Assembly: GCF_013167455.1 (NCBI RefSeq)
Contig: NZ_CP038328.1
Strand: one strand, 5' to 3'
DNA from: Escherichia coli O157:H7
Lineage (GTDB): Bacteria; Pseudomonadota; Gammaproteobacteria; Enterobacterales; Enterobacteriaceae
DNA: 64,000 nucleotides
Shown: in pieces, positions 10,098-24,729 of the stretch
Position numbering within the stretch: position 1 is the first letter of the stretch
Layout: each line of letters starts with the position of its first letter
Translations under genes and position numbers: made by a program
The notes under the pieces: model-generated
What the model was told of the DNA's origin: nothing
What the model saw: the letters and a program-made list of their open reading frames with translations, nothing else
Database searches by the model: none

Positions 10098-11615
10098 ATG
10101 GACAGAATGATGCCAAATAGAAAATGGATTTTGACCTCGCTGATAATGACTTTTTTCGGCATCCCCATACTGGCGCAATTTTTGGCAGCGGTTGTTGCCA
10201 TGCTGGGTGTCGGGCTTACCGGTATTATTGAAGTTTGTAATATCCTTATCACGCCAACAATTTATCTTCTACTCAACGTCTTTATGCTGACGCTGGGGGC
10301 GATAATAATATTTTTCTCTGGTCGCGTGTGGGCCGGTGATAGCGCGCCAGAAAACAGAGAAATAGCCGTCTGGCGGCAATGCTTTTTTCTCTTACCCGCG
10401 CTATTAACCCTGGTTGGCTGGATAATCACGCTACATCTGGCAGATTATCAATTTCGCCAGATGGGAGCTGGTTGGTTGGCAAACCTTATGCTTCCCTGGT
10501 TGGGCGTTTTTTTAGTCTCATTAGTGGGTGGTGAGTACTGGTGGATGGTCATTATTCCCGTTGGGGCGCATATCAGTTTTTCGCTGGGATACGCCTGGCC
10601 GACCAGATATCCTTTATCCGGCACGTCCGGACTACGTTGCCGTAACTTACTCCTGTTTCTACTTCTCTTACTTGGTATTGTCGCCGGGTATCAGGCCCAT
10701 TTATATAAGCAGCAAAATCCTGGTGTCGGTGTACGCGAAAATATTGATATCAGGGCCTGGCGACCCGATAAACTCAATAATCGACTGACGCCGCTGCGTG
10801 GCAAACCGCAAATTCAGTTTAGGCAAAACTGGCCGCGAATCGATGGCGCCACGGCTGCGTACCCAATTTATGCTTCTGCATTTTATGCATTAAGTGTAAT
10901 ACCAGAGGATTTTCACGTTTGGGAATATCTGGAGAACTCTCGTACCCCCGATGCATATAACCGGATTGTTAAAGGTGATGCCGATATTATTTTTGTGGCG
11001 CAACCCTCCGGCGGGCAGAAAAAACGCGCTGAGGAATCGGGCGTCACTTTGCTATACACGCCATTTGCCCGTGAAGCATTTGTTTTCATCGTCAATGCGG
11101 ATAATCCGGTTAATTCCCTGACTGAACAACAGGTGCGTGACATTTTCAGTGGTGCAATTACCAATTGGCGTACTGTTGGCGGTAACGATCAGGAGATCCA
11201 GACCTGGCAGCGCCCGGAAGACTCTGGCAGCCAGACAGTGATGCAATCACAGGTCATGAAAAAAGTCCGCATGATCTCGCCGCAGGAAACGGAAGTGGCA
11301 AGCGTGATGGAGGGAATGATTAAAGTCGTTGCCGAATACCGTAATACAAACAACGCAATAGGCTATACCTTCCGCTATTACGCGACGCAAATGAATGCTG
11401 ATAAAAATATAAGATTGCTAGCGATTAACGGTATTACACCGACGGCGGAAAACATTCGCAACGGCAAATATGCGTACATCGTCGATGCATTTATGGTGAC
11501 GAGAGAAAATACAACGTCAGAAACACAAAAACTGGTCGAATGGTTTTTAACGCCGCAGGGGCAGAGTCTGGTAGAAGATGTGGGATATGTGCCGCTGTAT
11601 CTAACAATGGAATAA
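10098..11615 (+). CDS. uncharacterised fusion protein: N-terminal polytopic membrane domain (about 6 predicted TM helices, residues 1-210) plus C-terminal PstS-like periplasmic phosphate/anion-binding domain
   Basis: 505-aa ORF; N-terminal half is strongly hydrophobic. C-terminal half carries PstS-family signatures as I recall them: GATAAYPIYASAF, QRPEDSGSQ (compare RADGSGTS in PstS), IGYTFRYYA, ITPTAENIRNG. Start may be M1 or M4/M5; AGGAAG SD precedes 10098. Confidence 0.8.
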   Translation: MDRMMPNRKWILTSLIMTFFGIPILAQFLAAVVAMLGVGLTGIIEVCNILITPTIYLLLNVFMLTLGAIIIFFSGRVWAGDSAPENREIAVWRQCFFLLPALLTLVGWIITLHLADYQFRQMGAGWLANLMLPWLGVFLVSLVGGEYWWMVIIPVGAHISFSLGYAWPTRYPLSGTSGLRCRNLLLFLLLLLGIVAGYQAHLYKQQNPGVGVRENIDIRAWRPDKLNNRLTPLRGKPQIQFRQNWPRIDGATAAYPIYASAFYALSVIPEDFHVWEYLENSRTPDAYNRIVKGDADIIFVAQPSGGQKKRAEESGVTLLYTPFAREAFVFIVNADNPVNSLTEQQVRDIFSGAITNWRTVGGNDQEIQTWQRPEDSGSQTVMQSQVMKKVRMISPQETEVASVMEGMIKVVAEYRNTNNAIGYTFRYYATQMNADKNIRLLAINGITPTAENIRNGKYAYIVDAFMVTRENTTSETQKLVEWFLTPQGQSLVEDVGYVPLYLTME

Positions 11616-11640
11616 CGCTCGAGAGAAAGGAATCAGCGAG

Positions 11641-12633
11641 ATGAATAAATTCACCGGTGTTTTACTATTAGGCACGGCGTTACTGGCGGGATGTGTCGAC
11701 CGGGAAGGGTACTATAACAGCGTCAGGGAAGAAGAGAGCCATGGACTGACGTCTCTGCGGGGGCAACCTGCATTACGTTACAGCGATGATTGGTCAAGAT
11801 GGCCGAGAGTGTACGGCGCTACAGCCTTATACCCGCTGTATGCCTCCGCGTATTATAAATTAGTACCCGAGCCAAAAGATAAGGATCGAACCTCGCTGGC
11901 CTGGCAGGCGTATGGTTTGCAGCAAACCCGAACAGCTGAAGCCTACGATAGTCTGATTAAAGGTTCCGCGACGGTTATTTTTGTTGCACAACCGTCGGAA
12001 GGACAGAAAAAACGTGCAGAAGAAGCGGGTGTTAAACTGAAATATACCGCTTTCGCCCGCGAAGCCTTTGTCTTTATCGTTGATATTAATAACCCGGTAA
12101 ATTCTCTCTCTGAGCACCAGGTTAAAGATATTTTTAGCGGCAAAACTAGCCGCTGGAATAAAGTAGGTGGTAGTGACGAACATATAAAAGTCTGGCAGCG
12201 CCCTGAAGATTCTGGAAGCCAAACGATTATGAAGGGGTTGGTTATGCAAGACACCCCAATGCTGCCAGCTAAAAAATCCACTGTGATTGATCTTATGGGC
12301 GGTTTAATTACTGAAGTTGCCGACTATCAAAACACGCCATCTTCCATTGGGTACACCTTCCACTATTACGTCACTCGTATGAATGACAATATGCTCAAAA
12401 TGCGCAAGCAGATTAAACTTTTGGCTATAAATGGCGTTGCGCCTACCGAGGAAAATATCCGCAACGGCACTTATCCATACATTGTGGATGCCTATATGGT
12501 GACGCGTGAAAATCCCACGCCGGAAACGCAGAAATTTGTTGACTGGTTTATAAGTCAGCAGGGGCAACAGTTGGTAGAGGATGTGGGGTATGTGCCGCTG
12601 TATGAAGCATCCCCCGAATCATCAGGACAATAA
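11641..12633 (+). CDS. PstS-like phosphate/anion-binding lipoprotein (paralog of the C-terminal domain of the upstream gene)
   Basis: 330-aa ORF; signal peptide with lipobox LLAGC; roughly 60-70% identity by eye to residues 230-505 of ORF 10098-11615, sharing the FVAQPS.GQKKRAEE, AREAFVFIV, WQRPEDSGSQT and VEDVGYVPLY blocks. Confidence 0.85.
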   Translation: MNKFTGVLLLGTALLAGCVDREGYYNSVREEESHGLTSLRGQPALRYSDDWSRWPRVYGATALYPLYASAYYKLVPEPKDKDRTSLAWQAYGLQQTRTAEAYDSLIKGSATVIFVAQPSEGQKKRAEEAGVKLKYTAFAREAFVFIVDINNPVNSLSEHQVKDIFSGKTSRWNKVGGSDEHIKVWQRPEDSGSQTIMKGLVMQDTPMLPAKKSTVIDLMGGLITEVADYQNTPSSIGYTFHYYVTRMNDNMLKMRKQIKLLAINGVAPTEENIRNGTYPYIVDAYMVTRENPTPETQKFVDWFISQQGQQLVEDVGYVPLYEASPESSGQ

Positions 12634-13235
12634 TGATGAATATAATCAGACTTTATATTTATCCGTTATTTCTCGGCTTTGTTATTGTACCGTTGTTGGT
12701 GTGGCCGACGGTGGTTGCGCTGGCTGCCTGTGTAATCACGCTGAGTTTTCTGGGAGAAATACTGTTCTCAATCCCGCTCATGCACAGGCGTATTTCCCTT
12801 CTGCAATTACAACTATGGTTATCGGCTGAATATGCGCTTTTCTTCTGTGCAATGGTGGGCGTTGGTTGGCAATTTGCGCGCAGAACGCCACCTGAATTGA
12901 AAAGCAGACTGCATTGTTGGCTGGTATTTGCACCAGTTTATTTCTGGTTGCTCCTGTGGAATATCATTTTTTATGTCGCGCCAGCGCAAATTGCTTTGCT
13001 GGAAAATATGCGCAGTTTCTTTCTGACAGTTGTCTGGCTCCCACTGAATTTTTCGCCATTTTGGTCTCAACAGTGGATCGACTTTGTCGGTCCGATAAGT
13101 GCACAGCTTGGTTTTGCGTTGGGATATTATTGCCAGTGGCGTAGCAAAAATAGAAGCCAGATACGGAAGTGGAGTGAGTGGGGAACGTGCTTAAGTTTTG
13201 TTACGTTGGGTATGATGGCGTGGGCTTTGCGGTAA
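12633..13235 (+). CDS. integral membrane protein (about 6 TM), paralog of the N-terminal membrane domain of ORF 10098-11615
   Basis: 200-aa hydrophobic ORF; its ATG overlaps the upstream stop (TAATG); shares LGFALGYYCQW versus ISFSLGYAWPT and a similar helix spacing with the ORF1 N-domain. Confidence 0.7.
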   Translation: MMNIIRLYIYPLFLGFVIVPLLVWPTVVALAACVITLSFLGEILFSIPLMHRRISLLQLQLWLSAEYALFFCAMVGVGWQFARRTPPELKSRLHCWLVFAPVYFWLLLWNIIFYVAPAQIALLENMRSFFLTVVWLPLNFSPFWSQQWIDFVGPISAQLGFALGYYCQWRSKNRSQIRKWSEWGTCLSFVTLGMMAWALR

Positions 13236-13288: not shown

Positions 13289-13387
13289 GCCTGATGCGGC
13301 GTGAACGCCTTATCAGGCCTACAAAATCATGCAAATTCAACATATTGCATAAACCACGTAGGCCTGATAAGCGTAGCGCATCAGGCA
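13289..13387. repeat. BIME: two REP elements in inverted orientation
   Basis: gcctgatgcggcgtgaacgccttatcaggcctac (13289-13322) and gtaggcctgataagcgtagcgcatcaggca (13358-13387) match the enterobacterial REP consensus. Confidence 0.85.
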
Positions 13388-15503: not shown

Positions 15504-16346
<843 letters not shown>

Positions 16347-16362
16347 TTCCAGGGATTTAGAA

Positions 16363-17121
16363 ATGAAACAAACACAACGTCACAACGGTATTATCGAACT
16401 GGTTAAACAGCAGGGTTATGTCAGTACCGAGGAGCTGGTGGAGCACTTCTCCGTCAGCCCGCAGACTATTCGCCGCGACCTCAATGAGCTGGCGGAGCAA
16501 AACCTGATCCTGCGCCATCATGGCGGTGCGGCGCTGCCTTCCAGTTCGGTTAACACGCCGTGGCACGATCGTAAAGCCACCCAGACCGAAGAAAAAGAGC
16601 GCATCGCCCGCAAAGTGGCGGAGCAAATCCCCAATGGCTCGACGCTGTTTATCGATATCGGCACCACGCCGGAAGCGGTGGCGCACGCGCTGCTCAATCA
16701 CAGCAATTTGCGCATTGTCACCAACAATCTTAACGTTGCTAACACGCTGATGGTAAAAGAGGATTTCCGTATTATTCTCGCCGGTGGCGAATTACGCAGC
16801 CGCGATGGCGGGATCATTGGCGAAGCGACGCTCGATTTTATCTCCCAGTTCCGCCTTGATTTCGGCATTCTGGGGATAAGCGGCATCGATAGCGACGGCT
16901 CGCTGCTGGAGTTCGATTACCACGAAGTTCGCACCAAACGCGCCATTATTGAGAACTCGCGCCACGTTATGCTGGTTGTCGATCACTCGAAATTTGGCCG
17001 TAACGCGATGGTCAATATGGGTAGCATCAGCATGGTAGATGCCGTCTACACCGACACCCCGCCGCCAGTAAGCGTGATGCAGGTGCTGACGGACCACCAT
17101 ATTCAACTGGAGCTGTGCTGA
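16363..17121 (+). CDS. glpR: glycerol-3-phosphate regulon repressor (DeoR family)
   Basis: MKQTQRHNGIIELVKQQGYVSTEELVEHFSVSPQTIRRDL... 252 aa; start trimmed from 16312 to the ATG at 16363; 3' end overlaps the rtcR 3' end by 19 nt (convergent). Confidence 0.93.
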   Translation: MKQTQRHNGIIELVKQQGYVSTEELVEHFSVSPQTIRRDLNELAEQNLILRHHGGAALPSSSVNTPWHDRKATQTEEKERIARKVAEQIPNGSTLFIDIGTTPEAVAHALLNHSNLRIVTNNLNVANTLMVKEDFRIILAGGELRSRDGGIIGEATLDFISQFRLDFGILGISGIDSDGSLLEFDYHEVRTKRAIIENSRHVMLVVDHSKFGRNAMVNMGSISMVDAVYTDTPPPVSVMQVLTDHHIQLELC

Positions 17122-18701
17122 TCCTGCACGGCTTCCCACGTCAGACCAAAACGCGCCAGGTATTTGCGTAGCCGATCCGCGTCATTGACGCTGGCTTTGC
17201 CCTGGCGCGAAACGTCAAAAAGCTGGCGTCCGGCTGCGGAAAGCGACTTTGCCTGGCGGCAGATTGCGATAACGTGTTCCAGTTGCATACGGTCGAAGAG
17301 ATCGATGTTTTCTGCCTCTGCGCCCAGCAACGCCGTAAGCGCGGAGGGGCGGCTCTCCTGCCAGTTATAGCGCAGACGGTTTATCTCATCTTCAACCACG
17401 TCCAGAGTAATGCGTCCGCTAGAGGCAAAGGTTGCCATTCGCGTGACGCTGGCAGAAAGCTCGCGAAAGTTACCGCGCCATGTTGCCTGGGGAGATGTCG
17501 CAAAGGCCAGCCAGGCGCGCCGCGCTTCGGTGTTAAAACGCACGCTGTCGCCGGTGAGTGAAGCGTGGCGCTCCACTTCATAATCCAGGTTAGGTTCAAT
17601 ATCTTCCTGACGCTGGCGTAGCCCCGGCAGGGTGAAGGTCCAGAGATTGATCCGCGCGTATAGATCTTCGCGGAATTTGCCATCGGCAACCAGCTGGCGC
17701 AAATCACGCACCGTTCCGGCGATAAGCTGAAAATCACTGCTCACCTGGCGATCGCTGCCAAACGGATAAAAGGTTTTTTCTTCAATGGCTTTCAGCAGCA
17801 TTGCCTGTTCGTCTGCGCCCAGTTCGCCAATCTCATCAAGAAACAACATTCCGCCGTTGGCGCTGCGTAATAATCCTTCACGAGATTCCCGTGCCCCGGT
17901 AAACGCGCCTTTCACATGACCAAACAGCGTCGACATGGCGGTATCGCCGCGCAGGGTTGCGCAGTTCACTTCCACAAACGCGCCGCTAAACTGATGCCGC
18001 GCCTGTTTTAATTCAAATATACGTCGCGCCAGAAATGACTTGCCCGCACCGGTTGGGCCGTTTAGCAGGATCGGTGCGCGGGATTTAATCGCTACTTTTT
18101 CAATCTGCTCAATCATGCGGTTGAAGTGGGGGTTACGCGTGGCAATACCGGACTTAAGAAAATCAAGCGTTTGCTGGCGTTCCTCGGCAAAGCGGCTGGC
18201 GATGGCGTTATAAAGGCTTAAATCGAGATCGATAATCGTCACTTCACCTGCGCCGCGCGGCTGTTCTTTTTTGCGCGGAGGTGAAGATTGTATCAACCGG
18301 GCGGGCAGGTAACGCGCTTCAGCCAGCAGAAACCAGCAAATCTGCGCGACGTGGGTGCCGGTGGTGATGTGAATTAAATAGTCTTCTTTTTCTGGCTGAA
18401 ACTCGTAACCACGGGCGAAATCATGCAGGCAGGCGTAAACCTCTTCGAAATCCCACGGGTTATGCAGTTCAATCTCAACGCTCACCACTTCGGTTTCTGG
18501 CGAAACGCTGGCGATATCGCGTTTAAGCGTTTCAAATAGCGAGCGCGAGCGGGCGTCATGCAATAATTCCAGTCGATCGATGACTAACGATTCTTGCTGG
18601 CATATACAGAGTGACGGACGCCATTTCGACCAGCGCTGACTGCCGCGCCCGGCATAATCCAGCACTGTTCCGACAAAGCCAAAAGCCACTGTTTTACGCA
18701 T
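17103..18701 (-). CDS. rtcR: sigma-54-dependent transcriptional activator of rtcBA (CARF-AAA+-HTH)
   Basis: 532-aa ORF with GPTGAGKS Walker A and the GAFTGA sigma-54 interaction motif; divergent from rtcB. Confidence 0.95.
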
Positions 18702-20115: not shown

Positions 20116-21147
<1,032 letters not shown>

Positions 21148-21196
21148 AATCCCTCCCGGATCAGACTCATCAGTGTGACTATCCGGTAGAGGTAAA

Positions 21197-21682
21197 TTAC
21201 TCCAGAGTAATGGGATACAGTAAGGTAAGTGACTGGAATGGTGAAGGTACAAAGGCATACTTCAGATAGAAATTGCGTACTGAATCGTCTAAGGCATGAA
21301 CAATGAGCGCACGAACCCCTACCTGTTGAGCTATGGACATTGTGCGATAGACTGCATCTTTCAACAATGCGACGCCCAACCCTTTACCTGCCCAGGCTTG
21401 ATCAATTGCCAGTCTGCCTAATACGACAACAGGCAACGATTCGGGAGCATTACGTCGCATGGCTCCAGGGGCCAAATTACGTTGAATACTGCCTGTAGAA
21501 AGGCAGTAATAGCCGATTACCTGGCGGGTATTGGCAATACAGATAACGTAAACACGAGACAGACCGGAGCTGTGATTTTTTAACGCTTTCTTTTTTAGCC
21601 ATTCATTCATCCCGTGATCGGAACAGCAAAAGTCAGCCAGATTATGTTCAGACGTTAGGGGAGTAGGAGCCGTTATTCCCAT
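21197..21682 (-). CDS. GNAT-family acetyltransferase toxin (TacT/AtaT/ItaT-like; family members acetylate aminoacyl-tRNA)
   Basis: 161-aa ORF with acetyl-CoA-binding motif Q-x-x-G-x-G (QAWAGKGLG); start overlaps the upstream DUF1778-type ORF by 10 nt; N-terminus MGITAPTPL resembles TacT-like toxins. Confidence 0.8.
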   Translation of the reverse strand: MGITAPTPLTSEHNLADFCCSDHGMNEWLKKKALKNHSSGLSRVYVICIANTRQVIGYYCLSTGSIQRNLAPGAMRRNAPESLPVVVLGRLAIDQAWAGKGLGVALLKDAVYRTMSIAQQVGVRALIVHALDDSVRNFYLKYAFVPSPFQSLTLLYPITLE

Positions 21683-21957
21683 GGCGATTTACGATTCATC
21701 AACGCGTTAATTTTGGCCTGACGCTCAGCAGTGATGGGGGCGTCCAGGGCAGCGAGAAACGCATCGTATTGCTCGTCATCAAGGATGAATAGTCGTTGAT
21801 CTAATAAGATGTCTTGCGCTTCACGGCATGCGGCATCCAGCATAAAATCAGTGCGCGATTTTGCGACCAGATTCGCTGCCATATCAATCAGGTCACGCTG
21901 TGAGGCTTTCGCTCTGATATTGATTGGCGCTTCTTTGCTTTCCGGTTTCATATTCAT
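21673..21957 (-). CDS. DUF1778 / ribbon-helix-helix-like antitoxin partner of the GNAT toxin
   Basis: 94-aa ORF immediately upstream of and overlapping the GNAT gene; acidic small protein with N-terminal ...PINIRAKASQRDLIDMAA... typical of TacA/AtaR-class antitoxins. Confidence 0.75.
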   Translation of the reverse strand: MNMKPESKEAPINIRAKASQRDLIDMAANLVAKSRTDFMLDAACREAQDILLDQRLFILDDEQYDAFLAALDAPITAERQAKINALMNRKSPWE

Positions 21958-21960
21958 GAG

Positions 21961-22010
21961 CCTGTAGTGCGATTTTATATACAGTATAAAGAGTGTACAT
22001 AAAAACGCTA
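21961..22010 (-). promoter_or_regulatory. putative promoter/operator of the toxin-antitoxin operon
   Basis: AT-rich 60-bp spacer between the antitoxin start and the malT stop, containing inverted repeats TATAC-a-GTATA and TGTACA; inferred from the usual autoregulation of such operons, not demonstrated. Confidence 0.3.
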
Positions 22011-22017
22011 TACAAAC

Positions 22018-24729
<2,712 letters not shown>

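Follow-up and report, generated by a model that had tools for sequence, protein, structure and literature searches.

Between the genes rtcA and malT of an Escherichia coli O157:H7-type chromosome lies a pair of small, overlapping open reading frames (ORFs), and the question that this locus raises is what the pair encodes and how it came to sit there. The DNA analyzed, here referred to as the window, is a 64,000-nucleotide stretch of contig NZ_CP038328.1 (assembly GCF_013167455.1). A reading made from the sequence alone, without database searches, had proposed that the pair is a type II toxin-antitoxin (TA) module of the TacAT/AtaRT/ItaRT kind, in which a GNAT acetyltransferase toxin is coupled to a DUF1778 antitoxin. 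We conclude, with a probability of about 97%, that the locus is ataR2-ataT2 (AtaRT2), a GNAT/DUF1778-family type II TA operon of the O157:H7-type chromosome. The pair has already been characterized, and the finding is not new: the module, its structure, the toxicity of AtaT2, its antitoxin, and its exact tRNA target have all been published. Our additions to published AtaRT2 are the anatomy of the insertion junctions, a candidate operator, the prevalence of the module, and its plasmid relatives.

Identity of the locus

The toxin gene, ataT2, occupies positions 21197..21682 on the minus strand (486 nt, 161 aa; ECs_4262 of strain Sakai), and the gene for the DUF1778/TacA antitoxin, ataR2, occupies 21673..21951 on the same strand, directly upstream (92 aa; Sakai ECs_4261). 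The two genes overlap by 10 nt, which read ATGGGAATAA on the coding strand. Both ORFs described by the sequence-only reading, of 94 and 161 aa with a 10-nt overlap, are present as it stated, although the antitoxin is probably 92 aa long; the open frame itself reaches an ATG at 21957 (94 aa). The flanking genes, rtcA on the plus strand (stop at 21147) and malT on the minus strand (stop at 22018), converge onto the pair, which lies on the malT strand, with ataR2 60 nt downstream of the malT stop.

The proteins, the DNA, the position, and the primer sites of the pair are those of AtaRT2 of Sakai as published (PMC7470980; PDB 7F37), and we found no difference. The toxin ORF is 100% identical over all 161 residues to chain B of PDB 7F37, and AtaR2 is 100% identical to chain C, which begins MKPESKE, corresponding to the third codon of the 94-aa frame. 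The 35,044 nt of the window that could be compared with Sakai are 100% identical to it, and the 889-nt segment that carries the module (see below) is found exactly in that genome. In RefSeq, Sakai has ECs_4261 (279 nt) and ECs_4262 (486 nt, “N-acetyltransferase”) between malT (ECs_4260) and rtcA (ECs_4263), as in the window, and ECs4261-ECs4262 of E. coli O157:H7 Sakai is the locus described as ataRT2 (Ovchinnikov et al. 2020, Nucleic Acids Research, PMC7470980).

Cloning primers from the same study give a further link. The gene-specific parts of AtaT2-F and AtaT2-R match exactly at 21662-21682 (-) and 21197-21226 (+), and primer AtaR2-F (AtaR2-F-EcoRI) matches 21928-21951 (-) except at its 3'-terminal base. 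The mapped primers thus mark where each of the two genes starts and where the toxin gene ends. Because the primers map, the Sakai locus matches, the 35,044 nt are identical, and residue 139 of the toxin is Tyr, we identify the pair with published AtaRT2.

Family membership is consistent with this identification. AtaR2 matches the Pfam family TacA1/DUF1778 (PF08681) at 1.2e-19, a family whose antitoxins are described in the literature as being of the ribbon-helix-helix (RHH) DNA-binding type, and AtaT2 matches the Pfam GNAT families Acetyltransf_7, Acetyltransf_1, and Acetyltransf_10 at about 1e-4. The hidden Markov model search that had been suggested as a check therefore gives a strong result for DUF1778 and a weak one for GNAT. 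Against solved structures, AtaT2 matches TacT, AtaT, and KacT at 1e-17 to 1e-44; the next-best structures after 7F37 are those of Salmonella TacT (5FVJ, 7F36, and 7AK8), followed by AtaT and KacT. The TacA1/DUF1778 match, the identity to 7F37, and the structure matches to TacT, AtaT, and KacT together exclude chance ORFs and bear out the proposed assignment to the TacAT/AtaRT/ItaRT kind of module.

The acetyl-coenzyme A (acetyl-CoA) motif QAWAGKGLG, which had been noticed in the 161-aa ORF, was located at AtaT2 residues 95-103; its GKGLG loop (99-103) aligns with the HGKGLG loop of Salmonella TacT. Residue 139 of AtaT2 is Tyr, the catalytic residue mutated in PMC7470980. The toxin contains 11 Gly residues, and the 92-aa antitoxin contains none. 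In alignment, Tyr139 faces a Phe in the 7F36 chain. That Phe presumably reflects the crystallization of TacT as an inactive Tyr-to-Phe mutant.

The most likely start of the antitoxin is the second in-frame ATG, at 21951, which gives 92 rather than 94 aa: the RefSeq annotation, chain C of 7F37, the cloning primer, and each of the three plasmid homologues that were retrieved begin MK. The RefSeq antitoxin gene is 279 nt long in both Sakai and O157:H7 strain PV15-279. The ATG two codons further upstream, at 21957, is in frame but is not conserved.

Activity of AtaT2 and AtaR2

The experiments in PMC7470980 and PMC9177977 concern a sequence identical to the pair in the window. Expressed alone, AtaT2 kills E. 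coli BW25113, and neither the Y139A mutant nor AtaT2 coexpressed with AtaR2 does so; the two proteins copurify as a 99-kDa complex, which was taken to be an antitoxin tetramer bound to a toxin dimer (PMC7470980). The PDB entry 7F37 contains two toxin and four antitoxin chains. A block of in vitro translation requires AtaT2 and acetyl-CoA together. Ribosome profiling (Ribo-seq) shows a density that drops along ORFs, with pauses at all four Gly codons and no induction of guanosine tetraphosphate (ppGpp), and toeprinting places the ribosome arrest at Gly codons. By mass spectrometry, the glycyl moiety of Gly-tRNAGly carries an acetyl group (+42 Da) and Ile-tRNAIle is unmodified; peptidyl-tRNA hydrolase (Pth) strips the acetyl-glycine (all PMC7470980). 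Liquid chromatography-mass spectrometry (LC/MS) of tRNA in vivo later showed that AtaT2 acetylates Gly-tRNAGly exclusively, to 70-80% at 45 min (PMC9177977, 2022).

The checks proposed from the sequence, namely, toxicity with and without the antitoxin, acetyl-CoA dependence, and acetylation of aminoacyl-tRNA, had therefore been published already (PMC7470980). The accompanying remark that the tRNA specificity of the toxin cannot be read from sequence stands in principle but is moot, as the target has been measured to be Gly-tRNAGly (PMC7470980, PMC9177977).

In the mechanism that these data show, AtaT2 acetylates Gly-tRNAGly, ribosomes pause at Gly codons, and elongation collapses. AtaR2 binds AtaT2 and neutralizes it; the size of their complex is consistent with two toxin and four antitoxin subunits. 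Because AtaR2 is devoid of glycine, it can still be made while the toxin is active.

Relation to other GNAT/DUF1778 modules

The TacA-TacT system of Salmonella Typhimurium (5FVJ, 7F36, 7AK8) likewise consists of a GNAT toxin with an upstream DUF1778/TacA antitoxin but belongs to another species and another locus, and TacT is 44% identical to AtaT2 over 153 residues. The link of such modules to persistence was shown for TacT and is not known to extend to AtaT2. PDB 7F36 is the complex of TacT with Gly-tRNAGly and is tied to Yashiro et al. 2021; like AtaT2, TacT is reported to be specific for Gly-tRNAGly in vivo (PMC9177977). A second system of the same family in the same strain, AtaR-AtaT (ECs4308-ECs4307; 6AJM, 6GTS), also acetylates aminoacyl-tRNA, although its toxin is only 29.2% identical to AtaT2 (PMC7470980) and has a broader specificity, which covers Met-tRNAfMet and several elongator aminoacyl-tRNAs with a Gly bias (PMC9177977). 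In the GNAT-toxin tree of that paper, AtaT falls in clade A, whereas AtaT2 is grouped with TacT3 in clade D.

The closest relatives found are KacAT3 and related GNAT/DUF1778 pairs of Klebsiella, Enterobacter, and Citrobacter, with toxins 69-73% identical to AtaT2, which, unlike AtaRT2, are plasmid borne. KacT3 is 66% identical to AtaT2 according to the Klebsiella literature, and at least one of the related plasmid antitoxins, in contrast to AtaR2, contains glycine. Relatives of AtaT2 were found on 4241 plasmid records, mostly from Klebsiella, Escherichia, Enterobacter, and Salmonella, with a best identity of 73%. In the three closest relatives that we retrieved, all from enterobacterial plasmids, the toxin is 70-73% and the antitoxin 79-84% identical to the O157:H7 proteins, and each has the same 279-nt antitoxin gene and the same 10-nt overlap. 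Two of these three modules lie between traD and traT of IncF conjugative plasmids, in the IncFIB/IncFII transfer regions of Citrobacter farmeri (L007, 432-1183) and Enterobacter roggenkampii (L008, 432-1195). The traD-traT interval is an unusual place for an addiction cassette. Among phage records, nothing closer than 45% identity to AtaT2 was found, and the top records themselves turned out to be Salmonella contigs.

Insertion site and junctions

Alignment with K-12 and with the closest strain that has an empty site (L003) delimits a strain-specific accessory segment of 889 nt at 21125..22013. It replaces a 49-nt spacer bearing a hairpin like those of repetitive extragenic palindromes (REP), for a net gain of ~840 nt. 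In K-12 MG1655, malT and rtcA are separated by 42 nt with no gene between them, which agrees with the convergent arrangement and the gene-free K-12 junction given in the sequence-only reading. The proposal that an accessory insertion of about 0.8 kb lies between rtcA and malT holds as to its accessory nature but not as to its left edge: the breakpoint falls within the final codons of rtcA rather than in the intergenic region, and the event exchanged 889 nt for 49 nt. The segment was also correctly seen to be AT-richer than its neighbors, with a GC content of 0.462 compared to 0.592 for rtcA, 0.541 for malT, and 0.524 for the window, which places it at the 4th percentile of 889-nt windows.

At the left junction, 21125..21147 (+) encodes an altered 3' end of rtcA, so that RtcA ends ...VMITKLTD in place of the K-12 residues ...TRVSIE and is four residues longer; the length of the gene is 1017 nt for K-12 and 1029 nt for O157. 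All TA-carrying strains that we examined have this altered RtcA C terminus.

A 9-bp direct repeat, CAAACTCAC, is present near the left edge of the segment (21132..21140) and at the right (22013..22021), where it overlaps the malT stop codon; the copies are spaced 881 nt apart. Empty sites have a single copy of AAACTCAC at the position of the right repeat. By our estimate, an exact 9-mer pair within 1 kb is about what chance would yield, and only the position of the repeat is suggestive. We considered a clean target-site duplication and rejected it: beyond the left copy, the sequence does not continue into that of the empty site, and the 49-nt spacer is replaced by TGATAAC. The pair is possibly microhomology.

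The 3' end of malT (22014-22213) is 84-89% identical to K-12, compared to mostly 94-100% for the rest of the gene. Foreign flanking DNA transferred together with the module was ruled out as the source of these diverged last 200 nt, since the empty-site strain L003 has the same malT 3' end, 100% identical over the first 100 nt of the stretch and 97% over the next. Judged from these sequences, the malT 3' end is a mosaic or recombinant allele, independent of the TA module.

Candidate promoter and operator

An imperfect palindrome on the minus strand, with arms at 21957-21983 and 21994-22020, fills the 60-nt spacer between malT and ataR2 and is a candidate promoter/operator region. Its 27-nt arms form an inverted repeat that is 78% complementary, and the spacer as RNA folds at -27.5 kcal/mol (z = -5.2). 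The sole promoter-like site upstream of ataR2 in the spacer, TGTACA-16 nt-TAAAAT at 21999..21972, overlaps the palindrome. The same TGT(A/G)TAGC...GCTACACA inverted repeat precedes two of the three retrieved plasmid homologues, those of C. farmeri (L007) and Klebsiella pneumoniae (L009), and DNA homology to the C. farmeri module extends from window position 22018 down to 21294. The conservation at plasmid homologues and the start of homology at 22018 indicate that the palindrome belongs to the module rather than to the chromosomal site, and, by analogy with the RHH DNA-binding antitoxins of this family, it is probably the module's operator. The ataR2-ataT2 pair would then have a promoter of its own within the 60-nt spacer and would be autorepressed via the conserved palindrome that overlaps this promoter.

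A consensus scan for terminators found none between malT and ataR2 and none after ataT2. In the 49-nt spacer between the rtcA and ataT2 stops, a weak hairpin at 21152..21192 (-17.2 kcal/mol; z = -2.1 on the plus strand and -1.3 on the minus strand, not significant) may be a bidirectional terminator. No Rfam match was found in or near the module.

Distribution in E. coli

The module is carried by 394 of 5426 complete E. coli genomes (7.3%), in every case on the chromosome, in a single copy, and at the rtcA-malT site, and in 379 of these carriers it is at least 99% identical. Among the matches listed, O157:H7, O55:H7, and O145 account for most carriers, and a few isolates are unrelated; outside the O157 clone, the module is found in pig, baboon, chicken, and environmental isolates. 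In every listed carrier, both genes are annotated. The other genomes sampled have an empty site, with a spacer of 42-49 nt, or one of two rare variants, an IS421 insertion or an rtcA deletion. The suggested comparison of rtcA-malT junctions thus upholds the accessory status of the module, which is not present in all E. coli and is lacking from K-12. In a diverged allele (L004; 98.4% identity), both genes are intact, and the changed codons comprise 6 synonymous and 4 nonsynonymous in the toxin gene and 2 synonymous and 1 nonsynonymous in the antitoxin gene.

Searched with positions 20625-22517 of the window, plasmid records gave 46 matching places, and the TA segment alone had no plasmid match in the E. 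coli collection. Since the flanks match there without the TA segment, fragments of rtcA or malT appear to be present on some plasmid-labeled replicons.

The plasmid relatives described above suggest that the module reached the chromosome from a pool of plasmid homologues in an event that would have replaced the rtcA-malT spacer and rewritten the last rtcA codons.

Weighing the identification and the physiological role

Several points weigh against the identification as AtaRT2 or against parts of the account built on it. Among curated libraries, neither protein has an NCBIfam match above cutoff or a PADLOC match, and the matches of the toxin to GNAT Pfam families are weak (~1e-4). The Y139A mutagenic primers (AtaT2-Y139A-F/-R, Table S1 of PMC7470980) match nothing in ataT2 or in the window at up to 3 mismatches. 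This and the mismatch of AtaR2-F-EcoRI are probably errors in that table, and the Y139A case slightly weakens the Y139A mutant as a control. The 2:4 stoichiometry rests on the chain counts of 7F37 and the published size-exclusion result. A plasmid origin rests on similarities of 73% in amino acids and 72% in DNA, with no donor identified. The promoter, the operator, and autoregulation are read from sequence, and read-through from malT is a possible source of transcription, as there is no terminator-like site between malT and ataR2.

That the pair instead comprises a GNAT acetyltransferase of ordinary metabolic or housekeeping function and a small regulator, and no toxin at all, would fit the generic names given in RefSeq (“GNAT family N-acetyltransferase” and “hypothetical protein”) and the low Pfam GNAT scores, but we give this reading next to no credence: toxicity, neutralization, and the tRNA target have been shown directly for the identical sequence (PMC7470980, PMC9177977), and AtaT2 shares 44% identity with the toxin TacT, with Tyr139 aligned to the Phe of the 7F36 chain. 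With the pair identified as AtaRT2, what the module does for the cell is a separate matter. Its role is called unclear by the authors of the AtaT2 study, who mention an anti-addiction proposal (PMC7470980). The sequence-only reading had linked the module to abortive-infection-like phage defense, in which infection would release AtaT2 and shut down translation. Some TA systems do act in this way (introduction of PMC9177977), and a few phage or prophage records contain distant GNAT homologues, yet nothing that we found extends the link to AtaRT2. No PADLOC model matches AtaT2 or AtaR2 at E <= 0.01, no defense genes adjoin the pair, whose flanks are rtcBA and malT, and a literature search returned only general papers, the contents of which were not checked for such a role in GNAT/DUF1778 pairs. 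Coupled with the AtaT2 authors' own verdict on the role, these points make phage defense quite improbable.

An anti-addiction function, proposed for both AtaRT and AtaRT2 (PMC7470980, citing Jurenas 2017), would have AtaR2 neutralize related plasmid toxins and protect the cell from postsegregational killing upon plasmid loss. The nearest relatives are indeed plasmid borne, with antitoxins 79-84% and toxins about 70-73% identical, and cross-neutralization between chromosomal and plasmid GNAT/RHH pairs has been observed in Klebsiella. However, the same Klebsiella paper reports low similarity across the neutralization interface between clades, and the authors of PMC7470980 deem it redundant to keep an active toxin solely for this purpose; we regard the proposal as unlikely. 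A better, though still less than even, chance attaches to the idea that AtaRT2 is a selfish or neutral passenger, a plasmid addiction cassette that was fixed in one lineage by its addictiveness and by clonal expansion and that brings the host no benefit. The narrow, largely clonal spread of the 394 carriers (379 at 99% identity or more) is what such a passenger would show, as are the low GC content, the lack of a functional link to the neighbors, and an insertion that damaged the 3' end of rtcA and eliminated the REP-like spacer. Working in the other direction are the intact genes of the diverged allele L004, the presence of both genes in all listed carriers, and the occurrence of the module outside the O157 clone, in the pig, baboon, chicken, and environmental strains; yet 4 of the 10 changed toxin codons in L004 are nonsynonymous, and purifying selection there looks weak at best. 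Finally, the role of AtaRT2 could depend on context, either as a captured plasmid addiction cassette that acts in anti-addiction or plasmid exclusion or through maltose-coupled expression together with the changed RtcA, a reading that we consider improbable, slightly more so than anti-addiction by itself.

Other features of the window

Elsewhere in the window, the small RNA ES036 (CssrF) at 13323-13365 (+) is the sole Rfam match that reaches its gathering threshold (39.3 bits; cutoff, 37.6). Its neighbors on the two sides are glpD and an ORF of the ECs_4270 type. The glgP-glpD interval holds three codirectional ORFs at 10098-13235 (+), of 505, 330, and 200 aa, that correspond to Sakai ECs_4272 to ECs_4270 and are annotated as a membrane protein, an ABC transporter ATP-binding protein, and a hypothetical protein. 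K-12 presumably retains only a pseudogene remnant in this interval, and the region may be another accessory or decayed locus. The gene rtcR (17103-18701, -) is intact (532 aa), as it is in Sakai, but carries a frameshift according to the annotation of O157:H7 PV15-279. The window also has an intact glpR (16312-17121, +), a gene that is a pseudogene in K-12 MG1655.

Implications

The generic labels in RefSeq, among them “DUF1778 domain-containing protein,” mask a characterized toxin that acetylates Gly-tRNAGly, one that ~7% of complete E. coli genomes carry as part of AtaRT2, mainly O157:H7, O55:H7, and O145, at one fixed site. If the context-dependent role outlined above were true, the loss of the REP-like hairpin and the placement of the operator palindrome at the malT stop would allow MalT-dependent read-through to couple expression of the TA module to maltose regulation, and the altered RtcA C terminus could change the neighboring RNA repair function; such readings leave the identity of the module unchanged. 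The candidate operator, the plasmid relatives, and the change in RtcA offer handles for studying the role of AtaRT2.

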